A stretch of DNA of 64,000 bases, from the IMG/VR virus record IMGVR_UViG_2541047873_000001. One strand, written 5' to 3'. The position numbers and the translations under genes are program-made. This stretch comes from a virus (taxonomy: Duplodnaviria; Heunggongvirae; Uroviricota; Caudoviricetes). The first letter of the stretch is position 1, and each line of letters opens with the position of its first letter. The notes beneath the pieces are model-generated. The model had not been told where the DNA came from. It saw only the letters and a program-made list of their open reading frames with translations, and did no database searches. Below are positions 3,759 through 60,218 of this stretch, piece by piece.

Positions 3759-5680
3759 TAAAGAAACCTATTCGAATAAATATCCAGTCCACTTTTGCAG
3801 ATACGCTCACTGGATATACGCCTAATCGTTGGGTGGCGGAAGATATCACCGAGGATGATTTACTTATCGAGCCTGCGACGCTGGAAGATATCGAGCTGGC
3901 CTATATGGGCAACGAAATTTTGGTAACTACCAATGAGGCAATGTTCGAAGCTTTAACCACAACAAAATTGCGGTTAGCGCAAACAATGCGAGCATTTGTC
4001 CGGGCGCTTAATCGCGGCCTGAATGGCACTGACATTGCTGCGGGTACGGATGAGGCAGGTGAATATGAAGACGGACGTAATAGTATCGGTGGGGCAATCA
4101 TTGGGCGCGTGCGCCGGGTTGCTAATATCCCTGTTGTAACAGCACAAATACCTCTAACCGATGGACAAACGACAAGCATAATTTTCCATTCTCCAACCGC
4201 AGACGGCACAAGAATTAAAGGGGATGACGAGCTGGTTGCGTTTCAGTTTCTTCTTAACAAAAGAAACGTTACGCATGTTGTTGCGCCAATCGGTGGGCGT
4301 GATGTATCTCTGAGCCAGGTGTGTCAGGCGCTTTCTAACCTCATTGAGCGTAACAGTGCAAAATTCAAAAAAGCAAAGGAGCGCCAGGACAAAATGAAGG
4401 CTGATATTGAGGGGTATCTCAATGAAGCCGACAAGCTGGCAGAAGAACGTTCTGTGCTGATTGAGCAGGTTGAAGACGCACAGCGGGGGCTGGCAGAGAA
4501 ACGCTCAACACTCAATGATATGCAGAATAAATTAGACGCACAAAAAGCCCTTAACGCGGAATTGCAGGCTAAGCGCGATAATTTATTGTCAGCTAAGAGC
4601 CAAGGAACTAAAGAGCGTGCCTTCAATGATCAACTGCGACACATAAAACATAATCTTGCTACAGAAGGCCAAACAACGCTGGATAATGGTGCTGTAGTTA
4701 AGTATGTCACGTCAGGCAGTGATAGCTTTGTCACGATTGAGGCACCAGAAGGCAATTTCAGTATTGATGTCAGTGCTGTTAAAGGTGGGAGTTCAGCGGA
4801 CGCTGCAACCAAATTACTTAAAGCCTATCGTGAACATAATGCTGATCAATACAAAGTGGATGTGTTGCCGGGCCAGCCTGAGCCAACTGATCAGCCGCAG
4901 CCTGAACAGGAGCCACAACCAGCATCACATCCTGATCCCCTGGAGGTTGGTAAATATCGCTATGCGCTACAATCTCGCCCGGCGGGTGTTGGTGCGGTTC
5001 CTGAAGGAAATAAAGCTGTACTTGACCGTCCTGATCAGGCTGATCCGTATTACGAATATGCTCGTCACGGAATCATTACGTATGACCGCAAACTGACAGA
5101 CGAAGAAGTCAGTCAGTACGAATTACGCTATCTGCCTGATGACGATGAACTGAGAGGGATGGCGAACGAGCTGGTTGCGTCCAGCATGGTAAAACATATT
5201 GATGGCTATGTAGATCTGTTTGGAAGTGACCTGAAAACATTCAAGGCGCAAGTTAAAATTCTTTTCCGCAAAGCGTTCCCGAACGTGGCATATCCACTTG
5301 GTGATGGGGAGAACCTTTTCATTATGGACGTGTATAACGCCCTTCAAAATCATTCAAGCGAAGTAAAAACAGATCCTGTAGTTGAGCCAGAATCGCAACC
5401 TGCACCAGCACCAGAACAGGAGCCGGAGCCAGAAGAAGCGGGTGAATCAGCAAGCGAAGCTGACCAGGAAGCAGATAAAGCGCTTGAGTACCTGAAATCC
5501 GTTCCGGAGCAGTTCACATCCCGCGATCTGACGGTCATAAGTGCTGAACTTGATCATGTGCAGGAAGCTGCAAACGCTCTTATCAGTGCTGGTCGATATG
5601 ACGAGAACGAAGCAACTGTAGGTGCAGCCGTTGACTACCTGATCAATATTCTGGCTGAAATTCAGCAGGGAGGTGCTTAA
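3755..5680 (+). CDS. darA: DarA-like internal head / antirestriction protein
   Basis: 641 aa, close to the ~639 aa I recall for P1 DarA; coiled-coil centre and PE/PQ-rich linkers; sits in a lydAB-hdf-darA-ddrA-ddrB-like order. Assignment is positional plus size, not motif-based. Confidence 0.5.
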   Translation: MIKKPIRINIQSTFADTLTGYTPNRWVAEDITEDDLLIEPATLEDIELAYMGNEILVTTNEAMFEALTTTKLRLAQTMRAFVRALNRGLNGTDIAAGTDEAGEYEDGRNSIGGAIIGRVRRVANIPVVTAQIPLTDGQTTSIIFHSPTADGTRIKGDDELVAFQFLLNKRNVTHVVAPIGGRDVSLSQVCQALSNLIERNSAKFKKAKERQDKMKADIEGYLNEADKLAEERSVLIEQVEDAQRGLAEKRSTLNDMQNKLDAQKALNAELQAKRDNLLSAKSQGTKERAFNDQLRHIKHNLATEGQTTLDNGAVVKYVTSGSDSFVTIEAPEGNFSIDVSAVKGGSSADAATKLLKAYREHNADQYKVDVLPGQPEPTDQPQPEQEPQPASHPDPLEVGKYRYALQSRPAGVGAVPEGNKAVLDRPDQADPYYEYARHGIITYDRKLTDEEVSQYELRYLPDDDELRGMANELVASSMVKHIDGYVDLFGSDLKTFKAQVKILFRKAFPNVAYPLGDGENLFIMDVYNALQNHSSEVKTDPVVEPESQPAPAPEQEPEPEEAGESASEADQEADKALEYLKSVPEQFTSRDLTVISAELDHVQEAANALISAGRYDENEATVGAAVDYLINILAEIQQGGA

Positions 5681-6141: not shown

Positions 6142-9100
6142 TTGAACAAGTCAGTTACTTCCGCGCTATCCGAAGCAGCAGACATTAACAGTGTTATTGC
6201 GCTGGTTTCTTCATTAGAGAGGCGAGAAACACGCCAGGGGCGCAGTAGTTACGTAGTCACCAGTAAAGGGGCAGAGGTAAAGACGGCTTTTAAGGTCGTT
6301 GATGCCAGCAGTCTGATCATTTCGAACAACCTTGACGGTACGATTAATCCGGCCTTCCCGGAAGAACTCCAGCCACGTGACCGTACACGGCTATCCAGCA
6401 AACTCCAGGTTAACCGTATTGCCTCCAATTTACGCCCGGCACAATTAACGGATTCCGGCATGAGCAGCCACGGAGCGCCGATAGTTGGTCCGGACAACGT
6501 TGTTGAATCCGGCAACGGAAGGAGCATGGGTATCTGGCGTGCCTATGAGCAAGGGCAGGCGGATGAATATCGCCAGTACCTGATCGATCATGCAAAAGAG
6601 TTTGGTCTGAATCCTGACGACATTTCACAAATGTCTATGCCCGTATTGGTGCGCGAAAGACTCACTGATGTTGATCGTGCGCAGTTCGCCCGCGATTCAA
6701 ACATCAGCGATCTGCAAGAGATGGCTGCAAGTGAAAAAGCGTATGCGGATGCGCAATTTCTCACTGAGAGCGTCATGGCGCTATTTAATCCTTCAGATGA
6801 TGGGAATCTACTGGCGCGGTCCAATGATGCGTTTATTCGTGCGTTTTTGCGCGAAATAGGTGATACGGCGACGGCAGGTTTGCTTACAGCCGATGGGCGT
6901 CCAACGAAACAACTTATCGACCGCATCCAGAATGCAATTTTTGCCAAAGCGTACAAGGATGAAAGGCTTGTTCGGTTGGTGGCGGAAGAGCCAGATCCGG
7001 AAATGCGTAACATCCTTACCGCATTAAATACGGCAGCCAGCGATTTTGCGCAAATGCAGTCGCTTTCAGGTGATGTTCACCATGACACGGTAACCGGACT
7101 GGTAGACGGTATAGAGCAATTGAATGGTCTGGATAAACAGGCTATTGCCGCGCTACAGGAAGCAATTAACCTTGTTCGTGAAGCAAAAGATAACGGTCAG
7201 GCAGTAGAAGAGGTGATCGCACAGCGTGGATTGTTTGGAGATAGCACTCCGGAAGCAGAAGCGCTTGCTCTGTTTATTGTTGCCAACAACCGAAGCGCTA
7301 AGCGAATGGGGGCAGCTTTCAAGAAACTGGCGCAAAAAATTAACGATGAACTTATTCACCAGCAACAAGCGTTAGGCGATATGTTCGGCGGCGGAGATGT
7401 CGATCTGCGTAGCATTTTATCTGCCGTTTCTGATGAAATTGAGGCTGAGTATGGCGAAGGTAAAGGGCTTAATTTCGCCATGTTCGAATCGGTTTCGGGA
7501 GATGTCGAACCATACATTTCAAAGCTAATTGCTGATGCGACCAGCGTGGAGGACTTGATCCGAATCGTGAAGGCGTCAGAAAAAATTAAGGAGTCCGCAA
7601 AAAAAATAAAGCGCAATGTATTTTTGGAACTTGGTTTTTATATTCGCAATGTCACCGTTAATGAGATTAAGGCGTGGGCTAAACGTTATGGATACAGCAA
7701 CGCTGTGTTAACAACGATGTTATTGTCTTATCAACGCAGCAATTTTTATGCTAACGCACTGCGTGACGCGATTGAAAAAGGAGATGAAGCTCCTTCACTC
7801 GCAGATGAAAGAAATATTGATTGTGACATTGAAACGTTTTGCAATATGTCAGAAGAAGGCGTGCCCGCTGAACAATTTATACGTGTTTTACATAATGCAG
7901 CAAAACATATTCCTGATGACTTTAGCATTGATGAATTGCGCAATGGTTGTCTTGTTTGGTTAGGTAACTATTTAAAATCTCCAGCGTCTATTGCAGAGAA
8001 AACAGCTTTAAGATTTAGAAAGGAAATGAATAAAGCTGGAAGCGCAGAAGAGATGGTGCGCATAATCCAAAATACTTTGAAGTTATTCAAAAAGAGCTTG
8101 CATAATATCAACGATATTATGGCGGCTGGTAGGAAAATAACAGCCAGCGTCGGAGTTAGCTCCGAACTAACGGCAGAGGAGATCGCTGATGCGTATATTG
8201 AGACACTTGTCAGGCTTAAGGAGATAGTGGAATTAGCAGAGCATTCCTCATATTACGGAATCAAGGAGCGCGTTGACTTTACTATAGAACAAATCAATAA
8301 AGTTAGGTCAAATAAGGAAAAACTCACTGACTACCTTGCTGAGGTTTTGCACCAGAATGATCATGGGATTGGATATGATCTGAAAAAAATGCTTGTTTTT
8401 AATCTGGACATACCGGAAGACTTGCAAGCAGAATTATATGAAATAGCTTCATTAACACGTGGACAAAAAGCCTATCCTAATGCGCTTGAAAATGTAGTAC
8501 ATAAAAAAGTCAGAGCCGCATTTGACATGATTCTTGAATCGTCAAATGTGTCACATGACCAGTCTAAGGAATGGAGTCGTGGGATTGCTATTTCTGATGA
8601 AGCAGAGCAGTTAAGTGGTCACGATAATGAAACTTTCTCCCGTAAAGCATACAGTATTCGCGAGACAATTGAAAAAGCCTATATTATTTCAGGAGGGACT
8701 TTATCTACATTAAAAAATATTAACCACAAGAACAATGTTCGTGCTTTTGCAAGTCGAAATGGGAATATAACAATTGATGCTAATAGTGATCATGAGCGTG
8801 TATTATGGCATGAAATAGGTCACCATATAGAACATTCAAATCCCCATCTATTGGAGAGGGCCAAAGCCTTCATTAAATCAAAAACTAACGGTAAAGTTTC
8901 TTATCATAATATTGGTAGCCGTGGCAGTGCTGAGTATTTGGTGCGAACCGACCTAAGTCATGGATATATGTCTAAAATTTATATGGAAAATACGGTAAGT
9001 TCTGTCAGCGGCAGATTTATATCAAAGCCACCTGCATTAAGCAATTGCAGGGCGACTGAGATTTTTTCTATGGCCTTGCAGATGTATGCCGATCCTGAGC

Positions 9101-9183
9101 AGGCGACTAACTCTGTATTAAACAATGACGGCGTGCTGGAATTTTTCTTGGGATGTATGAAGGAGTTGCAAAATGAAGTATAG
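6142..9183 (+). CDS. Large DdrB-like protein
   Basis: 1013-aa ORF after a short hairpin (6051-6076); size and position fit P1 DdrB; no catalytic motif recognised. Confidence 0.45.
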   Translation: MNKSVTSALSEAADINSVIALVSSLERRETRQGRSSYVVTSKGAEVKTAFKVVDASSLIISNNLDGTINPAFPEELQPRDRTRLSSKLQVNRIASNLRPAQLTDSGMSSHGAPIVGPDNVVESGNGRSMGIWRAYEQGQADEYRQYLIDHAKEFGLNPDDISQMSMPVLVRERLTDVDRAQFARDSNISDLQEMAASEKAYADAQFLTESVMALFNPSDDGNLLARSNDAFIRAFLREIGDTATAGLLTADGRPTKQLIDRIQNAIFAKAYKDERLVRLVAEEPDPEMRNILTALNTAASDFAQMQSLSGDVHHDTVTGLVDGIEQLNGLDKQAIAALQEAINLVREAKDNGQAVEEVIAQRGLFGDSTPEAEALALFIVANNRSAKRMGAAFKKLAQKINDELIHQQQALGDMFGGGDVDLRSILSAVSDEIEAEYGEGKGLNFAMFESVSGDVEPYISKLIADATSVEDLIRIVKASEKIKESAKKIKRNVFLELGFYIRNVTVNEIKAWAKRYGYSNAVLTTMLLSYQRSNFYANALRDAIEKGDEAPSLADERNIDCDIETFCNMSEEGVPAEQFIRVLHNAAKHIPDDFSIDELRNGCLVWLGNYLKSPASIAEKTALRFRKEMNKAGSAEEMVRIIQNTLKLFKKSLHNINDIMAAGRKITASVGVSSELTAEEIADAYIETLVRLKEIVELAEHSSYYGIKERVDFTIEQINKVRSNKEKLTDYLAEVLHQNDHGIGYDLKKMLVFNLDIPEDLQAELYEIASLTRGQKAYPNALENVVHKKVRAAFDMILESSNVSHDQSKEWSRGIAISDEAEQLSGHDNETFSRKAYSIRETIEKAYIISGGTLSTLKNINHKNNVRAFASRNGNITIDANSDHERVLWHEIGHHIEHSNPHLLERAKAFIKSKTNGKVSYHNIGSRGSAEYLVRTDLSHGYMSKIYMENTVSSVSGRFISKPPALSNCRATEIFSMALQMYADPEQATNSVLNNDGVLEFFLGCMKELQNEV

Positions 9184-56265: not shown

Positions 56266-56595
56266 ATGAGTTACAGCAGGCTCGACGATCGATGCATTGA
56301 AGACGATGTGCTGCGCGCACTATTCCATCAGGAGATGATCAAGCGGGTATCGGAGTACCACTCCGATAATTTCCAGTACACGATAAAAATTGATGAGGTT
56401 TATCGCTCAGACCTGGCGGCCTATCGCGCCTATGGCAACGCTGATTTGCGCTGGGTATTTCGCGTGCTGGTGGGCCATGAGTCAGAAATGGAAGAAATGC
56501 CGGTAGGGACAACGTTAACTCTTCCTGACGCAGCATGGCTAAGAAACAAGATTCGCGATTACGCTGGCTCGGCACCGGAGATAGAAAATGCCTGA
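56266..56595 (+). CDS. Hypothetical protein
   Basis: 109 aa, coupled to the next gene. Confidence 0.4.
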   Translation: MSYSRLDDRCIEDDVLRALFHQEMIKRVSEYHSDNFQYTIKIDEVYRSDLAAYRAYGNADLRWVFRVLVGHESEMEEMPVGTTLTLPDAAWLRNKIRDYAGSAPEIENA

Positions 56596-57784
56596 CTTCC
56601 TGAAAAATCAGGACGGGCGATATATCACTGACGGCCTGTCCTCTAAGGATTTCACACGCGTATTTGAACTCATCAGGAAAGAGCAAAACCGCAAACGCCG
56701 CCAGGCGCACAGGACACTCACGCCGGGCAGGCTTAGGAATAAATCAGCCGAAGACATTCTTAAGCTGGGGAAAAAGAAAGGCGGCACGTTCTTTACGCGT
56801 GACGATCTGAAAGGCTTCGAAAAGCTGCGAAGCAAAGCACGCGAAAAATACGACAGCAAGACGGCTGGCATTACATACGCACAACTGGTAGCGTCCAGCC
56901 AGGCTATCGATATTAAGCGAGCAAATAACGCCGTAGACGACGGTTCTGGTATCAAAAGAGCTACGCCCGTATCTCTTCGTCACAATGTGATTAATATCCG
57001 CGTGGAAGCGTCCGATATATCCGTTCACCAGCACCACATTGTCCGGGTACGTTTTGAAGAATGGGATCAGATGGTCGATGACATCGCAGAAGACGATAAA
57101 TCAGCCCTGAAAGTCACAAAATCACTGTGTGCCGGGCGAGTGTCTTTCGATTGTGACTGCGGTCGCCATCAATACTGGTATCGCTACATCGCCACTGCGG
57201 GTAACTTTGCCCTGGCCCCGCCAAAAGAATACGCCTATCCAAAAGTTCGCAACCCTAAGCTGCAAGGCGTCGCCTGTAAACATGTGATCCACTCAATGAC
57301 ACGACTACAGTCTGCCAGTTGGCAGATGAGTATTGCTCGCGCCCTGCAAAAAGCTGCAACGCAAGTTGCCTTTGGTGACGATCGCCGCCGCACGACAAAA
57401 CACTTCACAAAAGAAGACGAGAAGGCGTTCAATCGAAACCGTAGCAGCAAAACGAATGTTGAGGCAGCTAAACGTGAATGGAAGCTCTATCAGAAACGCC
57501 AGGCCGCTTTAAGCACAAAACTGGCAAAGGACAACGGCAAGATTGACAAGCTACGTGACCAGCTGACCAGGGCCAGAAAGTTGTCCGATGCACAGAAAAA
57601 ACGGGCAGCAGCAAAAGAAGCAGCCTTGCAACGTGAGAAACAGAAAAACAAGGAGCTTCAGCAACGCCTTGCCGATCAATTCGCACTGAAGAAGCAAGCG
57701 TTCATTGATGCGCTGGTCATGACAGGAACGTCACCTGAGCAAGCTGAAAAAATGTTTATGGAGTATGTGAAGAAAGGTTCTTAA
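56588..57784 (+). CDS. Hypothetical protein with SWIM-type zinc finger and basic coiled-coil C-terminus
   Basis: CDCGRHQYWYRY...CKH fits CxCxnCxH. Confidence 0.4.
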   Translation: MPDFLKNQDGRYITDGLSSKDFTRVFELIRKEQNRKRRQAHRTLTPGRLRNKSAEDILKLGKKKGGTFFTRDDLKGFEKLRSKAREKYDSKTAGITYAQLVASSQAIDIKRANNAVDDGSGIKRATPVSLRHNVINIRVEASDISVHQHHIVRVRFEEWDQMVDDIAEDDKSALKVTKSLCAGRVSFDCDCGRHQYWYRYIATAGNFALAPPKEYAYPKVRNPKLQGVACKHVIHSMTRLQSASWQMSIARALQKAATQVAFGDDRRRTTKHFTKEDEKAFNRNRSSKTNVEAAKREWKLYQKRQAALSTKLAKDNGKIDKLRDQLTRARKLSDAQKKRAAAKEAALQREKQKNKELQQRLADQFALKKQAFIDALVMTGTSPEQAEKMFMEYVKKGS

Positions 57785-57792
57785 TTTACAAC

Positions 57793-57816
57793 AAAGGCGG
57801 TTATCCCGCCTTTTAT
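57793..57816. terminator. Bidirectional terminator
   Basis: aaaggcggttatcccgcctttt hairpin between convergent genes. Confidence 0.6.
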
Positions 57817-57817
57817 A

Positions 57818-58555
57818 TTACTTGTCCTTTGATGTCGATTGAGACTCATATATTGTCTCTACGTCATCTATTAGTTTATTAATACCCCACAATCCAGTGT
57901 CTTTATAAAAATCGCTTTCTTCAATTGCTTTTAATAAATCGGCAAAATCTTCTTGGGTGGAAATTCTTTTCTTTTTTGCTTTATATACATCGACAATTAC
58001 TTTTATGCCGTGATACAGAGCCAATCTGGCACTCTCAGTCTCTCTCTTCTTCTCTTCAATTGCAGACAATAATTTATATTGATCTTCTGTTTGCTTTTCT
58101 AGACTTAAAAGCTTGCTCTCTTTTTGCTTCAAGTTGATCTGCAACTCTTTTATTCTTGCCCTCTCTTCTAAATCAAACTCATAGTCAATGTATCTAATTC
58201 TTGCATAGTTCCTGCCTGTTGCTTTTGATATATACATTGTTATATAAGGCATTACCACTGACGCAGTGGTTCCATATATAAATGGCATAACAAAATGAGC
58301 CACAAACGGAGATACAATGATGGGGCCAACATAAGGAAAGTGATATTTCTCACCAACCCATACTATAGACAATGTTGTATATATATCGTACTTTGATTTA
58401 AATAATATAATAATATCCTGCCAGTTAACGACAAAGAAAGAAACCACAACATATGCAAACAACTTATTGAATAACTTGTCTCTTATGGCTTCTTCTATTG
58501 TGTTCCTGACTGTGACATTTTCATCTTTATTTTCTAATGATGAATCTTTGCTCAT
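57818..58555 (-). CDS. AT-rich gene for a multi-TM membrane protein with cytoplasmic coiled coil; exclusion or abortive-infection candidate
   Basis: ATG at 58555 (MSKDSSLENK); ~33% GC by eye against ~50% in flanks; three hydrophobic helices then a KE-rich coiled coil; downstream of higA on the same strand. Confidence 0.45.
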   Translation of the reverse strand: MSKDSSLENKDENVTVRNTIEEAIRDKLFNKLFAYVVVSFFVVNWQDIIILFKSKYDIYTTLSIVWVGEKYHFPYVGPIIVSPFVAHFVMPFIYGTTASVVMPYITMYISKATGRNYARIRYIDYEFDLEERARIKELQINLKQKESKLLSLEKQTEDQYKLLSAIEEKKRETESARLALYHGIKVIVDVYKAKKKRISTQEDFADLLKAIEESDFYKDTGLWGINKLIDDVETIYESQSTSKDK

Positions 58556-58616
58556 ATAAAAATTCAAACCTTCTTATCTTTATTTTTGGTGAAGGCGGTC
58601 TTCCAGACCGCCAAAC

Positions 58617-58976
58617 TCAAACACCAACCAGGCTTTCAAGAGGAATGCCAAACTGGGAATGTAAACGACGAATCATAGGTAACGTCAAATTTCGCGTGCC
58701 ATTAAGCACTTCGTAAACACGGTTTGACTTACCAATTGCCGGTTCCAGATCCTTCACTGTCAGCCCTTGCTGTTCCATACGAAACTTAATGGCTTCAATA
58801 GGTGATGGTGGCTCAATTGGGTAATGCTTTTTCTCGTACTCTTCGATGAGCAGGCACATTACTTCAAAGAAATCGCCTTCCGGTGTGTTCATTTCCGGTT
58901 CGTTATCGAACATCGGTTCGACCGCACGCAGTGCGGCCTCATAATCTTGTTCTGTACGGATAGGTTTAATGTTCAT
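58617..58976 (-). CDS. higA: HigA antitoxin (HTH)
   Basis: MNIKPIRTEQDYEAALRAVEPMFDNEPEMNTPEGD...MIRRLHSQFGIP matches the HigA family. Confidence 0.85.
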   Translation of the reverse strand: MNIKPIRTEQDYEAALRAVEPMFDNEPEMNTPEGDFFEVMCLLIEEYEKKHYPIEPPSPIEAIKFRMEQQGLTVKDLEPAIGKSNRVYEVLNGTRNLTLPMIRRLHSQFGIPLESLVGV

Positions 58977-58979
58977 GAT

Positions 58980-59282
58980 TTACTCCAGTTCTATTGTATC
59001 CGCTTCAATGGCATCATATTCCTTATGTGTTCCAATAAACTTAACGAACATCCATCCTCGCTGATAAGCAATTGCGACAATTAACCTGTAATCATTTCCC
59101 TTAATATTAAACACCACGCGCCTGTTTTTAAGGATGCTGGCTGTCCGGTACTGTTCTTTGATCTCAGCCGGATTTTTCCAGTCAGCCTTTGTTGCTTCAT
59201 CAACCCATGCCTTTAATGGCTGTTCTGCATCGGGATTCTTCGCCCAGAAATCCCTTAGTGTTTTTACCGAAATTATTTTCAT
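58980..59282 (-). CDS. higB: HigB toxin (RelE/ParE superfamily mRNA interferase)
   Basis: ATG at 59282 (MKIISVKTLRDFW...GNDYRL...THKEYD); toxin-first order. Confidence 0.85.
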   Translation of the reverse strand: MKIISVKTLRDFWAKNPDAEQPLKAWVDEATKADWKNPAEIKEQYRTASILKNRRVVFNIKGNDYRLIVAIAYQRGWMFVKFIGTHKEYDAIEADTIELE

Positions 59283-59312
59283 CACAGATTCCTTCTCTCT
59301 GAAAGTATAGTA

Positions 59313-59357
59313 GTCCCAATATGGGACAATGTAAAGCACTTTAGTCCCATGCTGGGA
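59313..59357. promoter_or_regulatory. higBA operator palindromes
   Basis: gtcccaatatgggac and tcccatgctggga palindromes overlapping the higB promoter. Confidence 0.5.
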
Positions 59358-59426
59358 TATGAATTGAAATCACAATCTCCAGACAATGCCCCTCGATACC
59401 AGATAAATCGACCTTTGAGGACGCTT

Positions 59427-60218
59427 ATGGGCCGTTTTGATGAATGGCTTGCTGATGATGCAAGCCTGATGAGAAAGGGAACAGAACATGACAGCACGCA
59501 GAGAGAAGAGACAACGACGGTTGAAGCGAATGAAGGAAGCACAACGGAAAATGGGAATGTCAGTGCAGGGCCATTCAGTATTCTGGAAGAGCACGCCGCC
59601 ACCCAATCTAATAGCCATGATAATTGGCCTGATAATGCTGGTGACTCTGTTACGGAAGTGATTGAACCTGACATCGCTCCCCTACCGGCATCGCTCGCTA
59701 ACAGAGAACCAAACCAGCAGCTTAAAACCCGATATAACGGACACAAAGCGTTCAACGACCAGATCCGCGCCGATTGGATGCTCATTATTGAATCAAGCCC
59801 TGACGCATTCGAGGCGCTTTTATATCGCCCGGCTGATGGCACCTATGGCGTCGTAAACGATGAAACAGGTGAAGAGTCATTCACGCAACTGGACAACAAC
59901 CAGCGTGAGCTTACCTATCTGGAACCGGAAATCGTATACGTCCTGGACAACCCGGACGGAAGGGATTCGTTTCATGCCATTGATGCCGATGGAGAACAGG
60001 ATGGTCTTGCTGATGAAGTGCTAATCCTGCGTATTGCTGCAAACAACGTACCTGTTGGTTCAATCCTGGAATGGAACGAAGAAATGGCGAATGGCCTCGC
60101 CCGCCGCTGGTGGTACGTGCACCGAATCTTCAGCTACGGAACACAACACGTCGGCTCCCTTTATTACTGCATCCCGGCTAGGAACTTTGATACCACTCAA
60201 AACGGAGTGATCGAATGA
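59427..60218 (+). CDS. Hypothetical acidic protein (start uncertain)
   Basis: ORF 59349..60218; an internal ATG at 59427 avoids overlap with the higB promoter. Confidence 0.35.
   Translation: MGRFDEWLADDASLMRKGTEHDSTQREETTTVEANEGSTTENGNVSAGPFSILEEHAATQSNSHDNWPDNAGDSVTEVIEPDIAPLPASLANREPNQQLKTRYNGHKAFNDQIRADWMLIIESSPDAFEALLYRPADGTYGVVNDETGEESFTQLDNNQRELTYLEPEIVYVLDNPDGRDSFHAIDADGEQDGLADEVLILRIAANNVPVGSILEWNEEMANGLARRWWYVHRIFSYGTQHVGSLYYCIPARNFDTTQNGVIE

Follow-up and report, generated by a model that had tools for sequence, protein, structure and literature searches.

An exchangeable gene for a predicted membrane coiled-coil protein, inserted in the higBA terminator of a P1/D6-like phage-plasmid

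The DNA analysed here, referred to as the window, is a stretch of 64,000 nucleotides from IMG/VR virus record IMGVR_UViG_2541047873_000001, and represents a P1/D6-like phage-plasmid. A three-gene islet occupies its minus strand at 57,788–59,357, antisense to the late tail genes, and consists of the toxin-antitoxin genes higB and higA followed by the subject of this report, a gene for a membrane coiled-coil protein of 245 amino acids (aa). The membrane gene is an open reading frame (ORF) at 57818..58555 on the minus strand with an ATG start, and its product matches phrog_8191 over the full length (E 6e-115); homologues keep the N-terminal MS.DSS in the alignment, which supports the ATG at 58555. 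The initial annotation had placed the gene just downstream of higB-higA on the same strand, behind a hairpin that lacks a T-run, and this placement is accurate: the spacer between higA and the membrane gene is 61 bp long, and a promoter scan found no promoter-like site within it.

The upstream pair appears from its sequence to be an ordinary type II higBA of the E. coli K-12 kind. The toxin gene comes first: higB (58980..59282, minus strand) encodes a RelE-fold mRNA interferase of 100 aa that matches Pfam PF09907 (E 3e-34, 117 bits, cut-off 27), PADLOC PD-Lambda-2_A (1e-41) and, among PDB entries, HigB (5IFG/5YCL, 1e-7). Three nucleotides separate its stop from the start of higA (58617..58976, minus strand), which encodes a helix-turn-helix (HTH) antitoxin/repressor of 119 aa that resembles PDB HigA (5IFG/5YCL, 2e-8). 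The HTH_3 domain of HigA covers residues 63–115 and the protein ends four residues past it, and neither Pfam nor the coverage of the PADLOC profile revealed a C-terminal extension or a peptidase domain. Ahead of the three islet genes the minus strand has a single promoter-like site, a sigma-70-like promoter upstream of higB at 59307..59335 (TTTACA, 17 nt, TACTAT; minus strand). A repeat search placed a 14-nt inverted repeat, TCCCAATATGGGAC / GTCCCATGCTGGGA, across this promoter at 59314..59357. As higBA operons are known to autoregulate through promoter palindromes (PMC11980606), the repeat is a candidate HigA operator, to which HigA would bind by analogy. Many D6-like plasmids have a full second pair in place of the PF09907 higB, namely a PF05015 HigB-like toxin and a 112-aa HigA (seen at L003 4334-5046, L004 3536-4247 and L011, which is D6, 4584-5295), and these plasmids retain the 119-aa HigA without its partner; the membrane gene may or may not follow it.

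Related elements place the islet among tail genes. Plasmid 4 of E. coli MINF_7C (92.8 kb) shares the 1.7-kb islet at 99.9% identity, and matches extend to 118 plasmids from E. coli, Salmonella and Shigella, which are with few exceptions non-mobilizable and about 90 kb in size. The islet is present in 97 of 5,426 complete E. coli genomes, every copy on a plasmid, and among phage records only in the plasmid prophage D6, where the flanking genes are annotated as homologues of P1 mat, 26 and 25 on one side and 7, 24, 6 and 5 on the other. Here the left flank is the homologue of P1 tail gene 25 (56588..57784, plus strand; phrog_1722, D6 and P1 annotation), and the right flank is the homologue of P1 tail gene 7 (59427..60218, plus strand; phrog_1906, RefSeq entry of the 99.9% identical plasmid, P1 annotation). 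According to the P1 annotation, P1 itself lacks the islet, and only 3 bp lie between the end of gene 25 and gene 7, which belong to one late operon. As genes 25 and 7 are contiguous in P1, the islet is an antisense insertion that splits the late tail operon in the D6-like lineage. In comparison with P1, an antisense islet of 1.6 kb with a two-way terminator hairpin (57793-57813) parts genes 25 and 7 in the window (57784-59427), at a site that corresponds to P1 3277-3281. RefSeq starts gene 7 at 59427, whereas the longest ORF opens at 59349. Some D6-like plasmids carry a further RelE/ParE-HigA pair between mat and gene 26 (L004 903-1474), so that the tail-gene region has at least two toxin-antitoxin insertion sites.

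Within the islet, the membrane gene forms a cassette of its own. Measured against sister phage-plasmids, DNA identity drops from at least 0.9 to 0.4–0.6 near 58,600 and is restored near 57,790; these two points coincide with two hairpins on the minus strand that delimit a hypervariable, exchangeable segment at 57796..58593. The upstream edge is the hairpin GGCGGTCTGgaaGACCGCC (58594..58612), which sister-plasmid comparison identifies as the stem of the former higA terminator and which is followed here by TTCACCAAAAA, without a T-run. The downstream edge is a terminator, the hairpin GGCGGgataaCCGCC with TTTGTTGT at 57788..57810, which is common to the convergent tail gene 25. Plasmids without the membrane gene have the same stem after the higA stop and, immediately behind the stem, TTTGTTGT, which together make a normal intrinsic terminator; in plasmids with it, the T-tract is displaced by 0.8 kb and lies behind the cassette's own hairpin. 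As stem and T-tract are adjacent without the cassette and 0.8 kb apart with it, the cassette was inserted between them. Four states of the site occur among the sister plasmids: higB-higA with the membrane gene; higB-higA alone; the PF05015 toxin and 112-aa HTH protein upstream of higA and the membrane gene; and this same PF05015 arrangement with higA but without the membrane gene.

The membrane gene is best explained as an accessory ('moron') cassette, which P1/D6-like phage-plasmids can lack or exchange. The initial annotation had regarded it as cargo, and this view is borne out by sister plasmids that differ only in its presence or absence and by the lack of the islet in P1. With the T-tract displaced and the spacer free of promoter-like sites, read-through from the higBA promoter is the most economical route to its expression. 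The co-transcription with higBA that had been proposed thus appears likely from the sequence, and it agrees with the movement of a 1.73-kb block holding all three genes between unrelated replicons (see below).

Alleles of the membrane gene differ far more than the genes around it. Compared with other D6-like elements, the window proteins show identities of 98–99% for HigA, 99–100% for HigB and 94–96% for gp25, against 37–65% for the membrane protein as a whole, 47–70% for its N-terminal half and 24–61% for its C-terminal half. Between alleles, the synonymous divergence (dS) is 0.5–1.1, and the ratio of nonsynonymous to synonymous divergence (dN/dS) is 0.16–0.24 overall, 0.11–0.20 in the N-terminal half and 0.2–0.4 in the C-terminal half. 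The alleles are old and under purifying selection, and the gene is not decaying. A dN/dS of about 0.2 argues that the diversity reflects old alleles exchanged by recombination into a constant backbone, rather than fast evolution in place.

The base composition of the gene had been taken as a sign of recent acquisition, and here observation and interpretation part. The low GC content itself is real, with 0.333 overall and 0.329 at third codon positions, compared with 0.498 in the flanking tail genes; in sliding windows of 738 bp it is the lowest value in the 64 kb, about four standard deviations under the mean (mean 0.478, standard deviation 0.037). Every family gene examined has a GC content of 0.35–0.44 whatever its context, even next to P2-like genes at 0.615. 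Low GC is thus a family-wide trait and poor evidence of recent acquisition in this phage-plasmid, and recent acquisition also sits badly with alleles as old and as constrained as those just described.

The predicted protein begins with an amphipathic helix and a first transmembrane segment at about residues 31–53 (with the invariant N44 and W45), continues through a loop of about 30 residues into a second transmembrane segment from about residue 83 (invariant P91), which runs on as one helix to 193, and ends in a helical head at 201–244. An AlphaFold2 model built with 39 sequences (pLDDT 87.4) gives helices at 8–28, 31–53 (kinked at 44) and, without a break, 83–193, a small head at 201–244, and a short helix with a beta hairpin in the loop. 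The family consensus has the same plan. After a charged helix at the N-terminus come two hydrophobic segments, the first of about 21 residues and the second of about 25, joined by a loop of about 21 residues; the first contains the invariant Asn (N44) and a Trp that is nearly invariant, and the second the invariant Pro (P91). A long helix comes next, and the C-terminal region is variable. A helix of about 110 residues thus follows a two-helix membrane hairpin. The three hydrophobic helices of the initial annotation reduce to these two transmembrane segments, which are found family-wide; the 'third' stretch, TLSIVWVG, belongs to the loop, and in distant members this stretch is not hydrophobic. 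The density of Lys and Arg weakly favours a cytoplasmic location of both termini. A crude heptad count singled out no one register, so the assignment as a coiled coil rests on the AlphaFold2 helix and on composition. The protein probably sits N-in/C-in and oligomerises through the coiled coil.

Homologues are few but consistent in form. With a word-indexed search, 18 clusters were recovered, each of them from E. coli or Salmonella, and a profile search of 1.84 billion protein representatives found 72 at E <=1e-3, nearly all of 200–270 aa and matching over the full length. The window protein has this length, the two hydrophobic segments with the invariant Asn and Pro, and the long helix. All of the 39 members searched against PHROG matched phrog_8191, and 33 of the 39 matched phrog_4780 and phrog_13369; the family spans five PHROGs (8191, 4780, 13369, 35327 and 22645), none with a functional annotation, so that membership supplies a family name and explains nothing.

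The initial annotation had recognised no family for the protein, and Pfam, NCBIfam and PADLOC likewise gave none. In Pfam the membrane protein hit only DUF6947, below threshold (E 0.004), and the 39 relatives gave only coiled-coil noise; NCBIfam had no match to it; and in PADLOC it matched nothing at E up to 1, while its relatives had SMC-like coiled-coil matches only. The PDB sequence profile and a fold comparison with solved and viral structures both returned only generic coiled coils. The homology and structure check that had been suggested turned up no housekeeping or structural homologue. A scan of GTDB with one genome per species found zero relatives, a megablast of a P2-like prophage copy against complete E. 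coli genomes gave zero matches, tblastn of the proteins P0029 and P0041 against phage records found little past D6 and two Vibrio inoviruses, and a literature search found no paper on the membrane coiled-coil family. On these sequence comparisons, the protein appears to belong to an uncharacterised inner-membrane family carried by mobile elements.

Where relatives lie beside a toxin-antitoxin pair, the arrangement is often that of the islet. An IncFIB plasmid of K. pneumoniae encodes HigB (103 aa), HigA (139 aa) and a membrane protein (41% identical) in unchanged order, with its HigB and HigA only 26% and 28% identical to those of the islet, and the order higB-higA-membrane gene with spacers of 55–70 bp recurs in three replicon types. 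In an 89-kb P1/D6-like viral contig, the Klebsiella-type trio lies between the contig's homologues of genes 7 and 25. The sole DNA that this contig shares with the IncFIB plasmid is a block of 1,731 bp at 95% identity, which comprises the promoter, higB, higA and the membrane gene; as nothing else is common to the two replicons, the trio travels as a unit. A second viral contig with the same backbone and the same HigA carries a different membrane allele. A different family of phage-plasmids, 97 kb in size and from Citrobacter, Salmonella and others, has HigB, HigA and the membrane protein among baseplate and tail genes; some of its members instead have TacA and a GNAT toxin, with a remnant ORF for the N-terminal domain of HigA between this pair and the membrane gene. 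In the latter (L025 3122-3500; L026, L027, L029) the TacA/GNAT-toxin pair comes with a strong terminator and occupies the HigB site of the sister L028. IS903B disrupts the membrane gene of many Klebsiella plasmids, and in most large IncFIB plasmids it is inserted after about 139 codons (L013 6001-7428 and about 50 other Klebsiella plasmids); an intact Klebsiella copy is found in NZ_CP069846. One viral contig has the gene shortened to 147 codons (L038 4001-4444).

Other relatives stand in quite different company. One on an E. coli IncF plasmid is linked to RelB-ParE/RelE, and another has the gene for a DUF4145 protein 12 bp upstream. Stand-alone relatives occur antisense between V and S of P2-like prophages, behind ogr/D where a P2-like prophage ends, and at the same 25/7 site of more distant P1-like elements that lack a toxin-antitoxin pair. 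A Vibrio inovirus has one beside a DUF2726 gene, and others adjoin two AbiTii paralogues, an AAA_21 ATPase and a C5 methylase, or a KAP NTPase. The stand-alone relatives argue that the membrane gene is no obligate partner of higBA. Beside one of the V/S relatives, on the opposite strand, lies a 247-aa ORF with a weak HNH_5 match (L019 4333-5076; E 7e-4), which may be a second cargo gene of this P2-like hot spot.

We suggest, tentatively and from genomic context, that the membrane protein acts in phage or mobile-element exclusion or in abortive infection. This reading falls somewhat short of an even chance and nevertheless ranks as the most likely, because of the hot spots, the antisense placement in late operons, the old alleles swapped into constant backbones, the variable soluble part beside a conserved membrane part and the defence-type neighbours, a combination common among genes that take part in conflicts between mobile elements. 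The gene would be transcribed in the lysogen by read-through from the HigA-autoregulated higBA promoter, and its product would shield the carrier cell from phages that compete with the element, or from mobile elements of other kinds. The part that senses or confers specificity may be the variable stalk and head in the cytoplasm, and the effector the conserved membrane hairpin, which would either block genome entry at the inner membrane or permeabilise the membrane and so cause abortive infection. The higBA pair would then be a neighbour and carrier that gives regulated expression and addiction, without being an obligate partner. A bolder form of this proposal, which we put forward with more doubt, is that the family is an unrecognised, widespread anti-phage or anti-mobile-element membrane effector of temperate phages and plasmids, and its HigBA-linked form a new three-component module in which transcription under HigA control would link activation of the toxin-antitoxin pair to a membrane protein with specificity set by its variable cytoplasmic stalk.

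Several observations weigh against an exclusion or defence role and against parts of its proposed mechanism. IS903B interrupts the majority of the Klebsiella copies, which makes the gene dispensable in those plasmids, and one relative has an ordinary chromosomal setting beside asr and a peptidase gene. The protein resembles nothing in PADLOC, Pfam or NCBIfam, and no PDB sequence or fold. Diversifying selection was tested for, and at a dN/dS of about 0.2 the alleles bear no signature of positive selection. The N-in/C-in topology is weakly suggested by the Lys/Arg bias, and since alleles elsewhere must have their own promoters, one may lie inside higA in this islet too.

Three other accounts use much of the same evidence. 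That the protein serves the life cycle of its element (lysis timing, tail or injection functions, maintenance), or acts in host physiology or lysogenic conversion, seems rather unlikely to us. Such a role would suit a gene that three unrelated tailed-phage backbones carry inside or next to their tail and baseplate modules, that is held under steady purifying selection with no sign of an arms race, and that has a chromosomal member outside any mobile-element context; yet absence from P1 and from intact sister plasmids makes the gene unnecessary for virion production or maintenance, it runs antisense to the late operon in the islet and in the P2-like prophages, it is also found on non-phage plasmids and a filamentous phage, and highly divergent alleles in a constant backbone suit a housekeeping function poorly. 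The chief rival of the exclusion reading, though in our view less probable still, is that the membrane protein is a true third component of the HigBA system, comparable to the accessory genes of PD-lambda-2 or toxin-antitoxin-chaperone (TAC) systems; it might sense an envelope or infection signal and free HigB, or act as an effector whose level rises when HigA is lost. The recurrence of one order and strand with such dissimilar HigBA pairs in three replicon types, the movement of the trio as a single 1.73-kb block, and the persistence of HigA or its remnant beside the membrane gene where another toxin-antitoxin pair has replaced HigB all speak for this account; HigB and HigA also score best against components A and B of PD-Lambda-2, whose third gene is needed for defence (PMC9519451). 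However, the 25/7 site can hold HigBA with no membrane gene, and P2-like prophages, the inovirus and distant P1-like elements carry the membrane gene but no toxin-antitoxin pair. The membrane allele is swapped while HigBA stays constant, and HigA lacks an extension that might allow docking. Linkage to RelBE, TacAT and DUF4145 points instead to a shared hot spot or a borrowed promoter.

The least probable account, and a very unlikely one, is that the gene encodes a membrane toxin or addiction factor silenced by HigA repression, which would make the islet a two-toxin module. A small membrane hairpin with conserved polar residues (N44, W45) under a predicted HigA-repressed promoter would fit, as would the IS-disrupted or truncated copies in Klebsiella plasmids and one viral contig. 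Against this, the stand-alone copies adjoin no regulator or antitoxin, and the IS903B interruption looks like a single inherited event rather than repeated counter-selection.

Phage exclusion or defence thus stays the favoured reading, and the locus is of interest because accessory islets of phage-plasmids and prophages are a main source of newly found defence systems, among which three-gene toxin-antitoxin derivatives such as PD-lambda-2 and TAC are some of the least understood. The near-identical plasmids that carry higBA alone, higBA with divergent membrane alleles, or the membrane gene with another pair amount to a natural experiment. If the protein does exclude phages, it would represent a new single-gene family in P1-like, P2-like and filamentous phages and in plasmids of Klebsiella, E. 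coli and Salmonella, and would illustrate how insertion into the terminator of a toxin-antitoxin operon lets a cassette use the promoter of that operon. If the protein has no such activity, the family remains a marker of a conserved membrane function that temperate elements exchange.

Two further parts of the window deserve mention. A stretch of low GC (0.40) at 70-1918 contains a tail-fibre-like ORF of 464 aa with repeated NQNT[TS]GNAA[ST]ATKL motifs and a 140-aa ORF that resembles a tail-fibre assembly gene, and may be an exchangeable receptor-binding tip. At 6142-9183, an ORF of 1,013 aa has a metalloprotease-like HEIGHH motif near its C-terminus, and its 3' part is low in GC (0.38 at 8001-8800).

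Among described systems, PD-lambda-2 is the first to consider, as it is a three-gene operon that opens with a HigB-like toxin and a HigA-like HTH protein, and the best PADLOC scores of the islet HigB and HigA are to PD-Lambda-2_A (1e-41) and PD-Lambda-2_B (7e-43). Its third gene is dispensable for neutralisation and required for defence (PMC9519451). PD-lambda-2B, however, has a C-terminal ImmA/IrrE peptidase, whereas the islet HigA covers only positions 1-119 of the 402-position profile, and PD-lambda-2C is a relative of the P4 antitoxin, whereas the third gene of the islet encodes a membrane coiled-coil protein with no PADLOC match (PMC9519451). Membership of PD-lambda-2, which the strong PADLOC scores had prompted us to consider, was rejected because the peptidase domain and component C are absent. 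The TAC systems (HigBAC, CmdTAC), which occupy variable regions of temperate phages and act by abortive infection (bioRxiv 10.1101/2024.02.24.581848; PMC11980606), likewise combine a type II toxin-antitoxin pair with a third, downstream gene. That gene, however, encodes a soluble SecB-like chaperone that binds the ChAD extension of the antitoxin, whereas the islet has a membrane protein. Pfam found no SecB match in the window protein or its 39 relatives, and identity with TAC was rejected for want of a SecB-like gene and of a ChAD extension on HigA. Tail-assembly interference (Tai) was considered because the islet lies among tail genes; the Tai paper describes no membrane or coiled-coil protein. 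The HigBA of E. coli K-12 (5IFG, 5YCL) resembles the upstream pair in its PF09907 toxin, toxin-first order, C-terminal HTH antitoxin and promoter palindrome, but is a two-gene chromosomal locus, whereas the islet has a third gene inserted in the higBA terminator.

The membrane protein resembled no entry in the catalogue of known anti-phage defence and exclusion proteins, and PHROG, Pfam and fold searches gave no sequence or fold match to known exclusion proteins. The nearest counterparts in kind are the small accessory inner-membrane superinfection-exclusion proteins HK97 gp15, T4 Imm and P22 SieA, which are expressed from the prophage and of which HK97 gp15 is also a moron among morphogenesis genes; none of the three is known to have a cytoplasmic coiled coil of such length. 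Two descriptions suit the locus best: a prophage membrane moron, or a toxin-antitoxin operon to which a third gene has been added.

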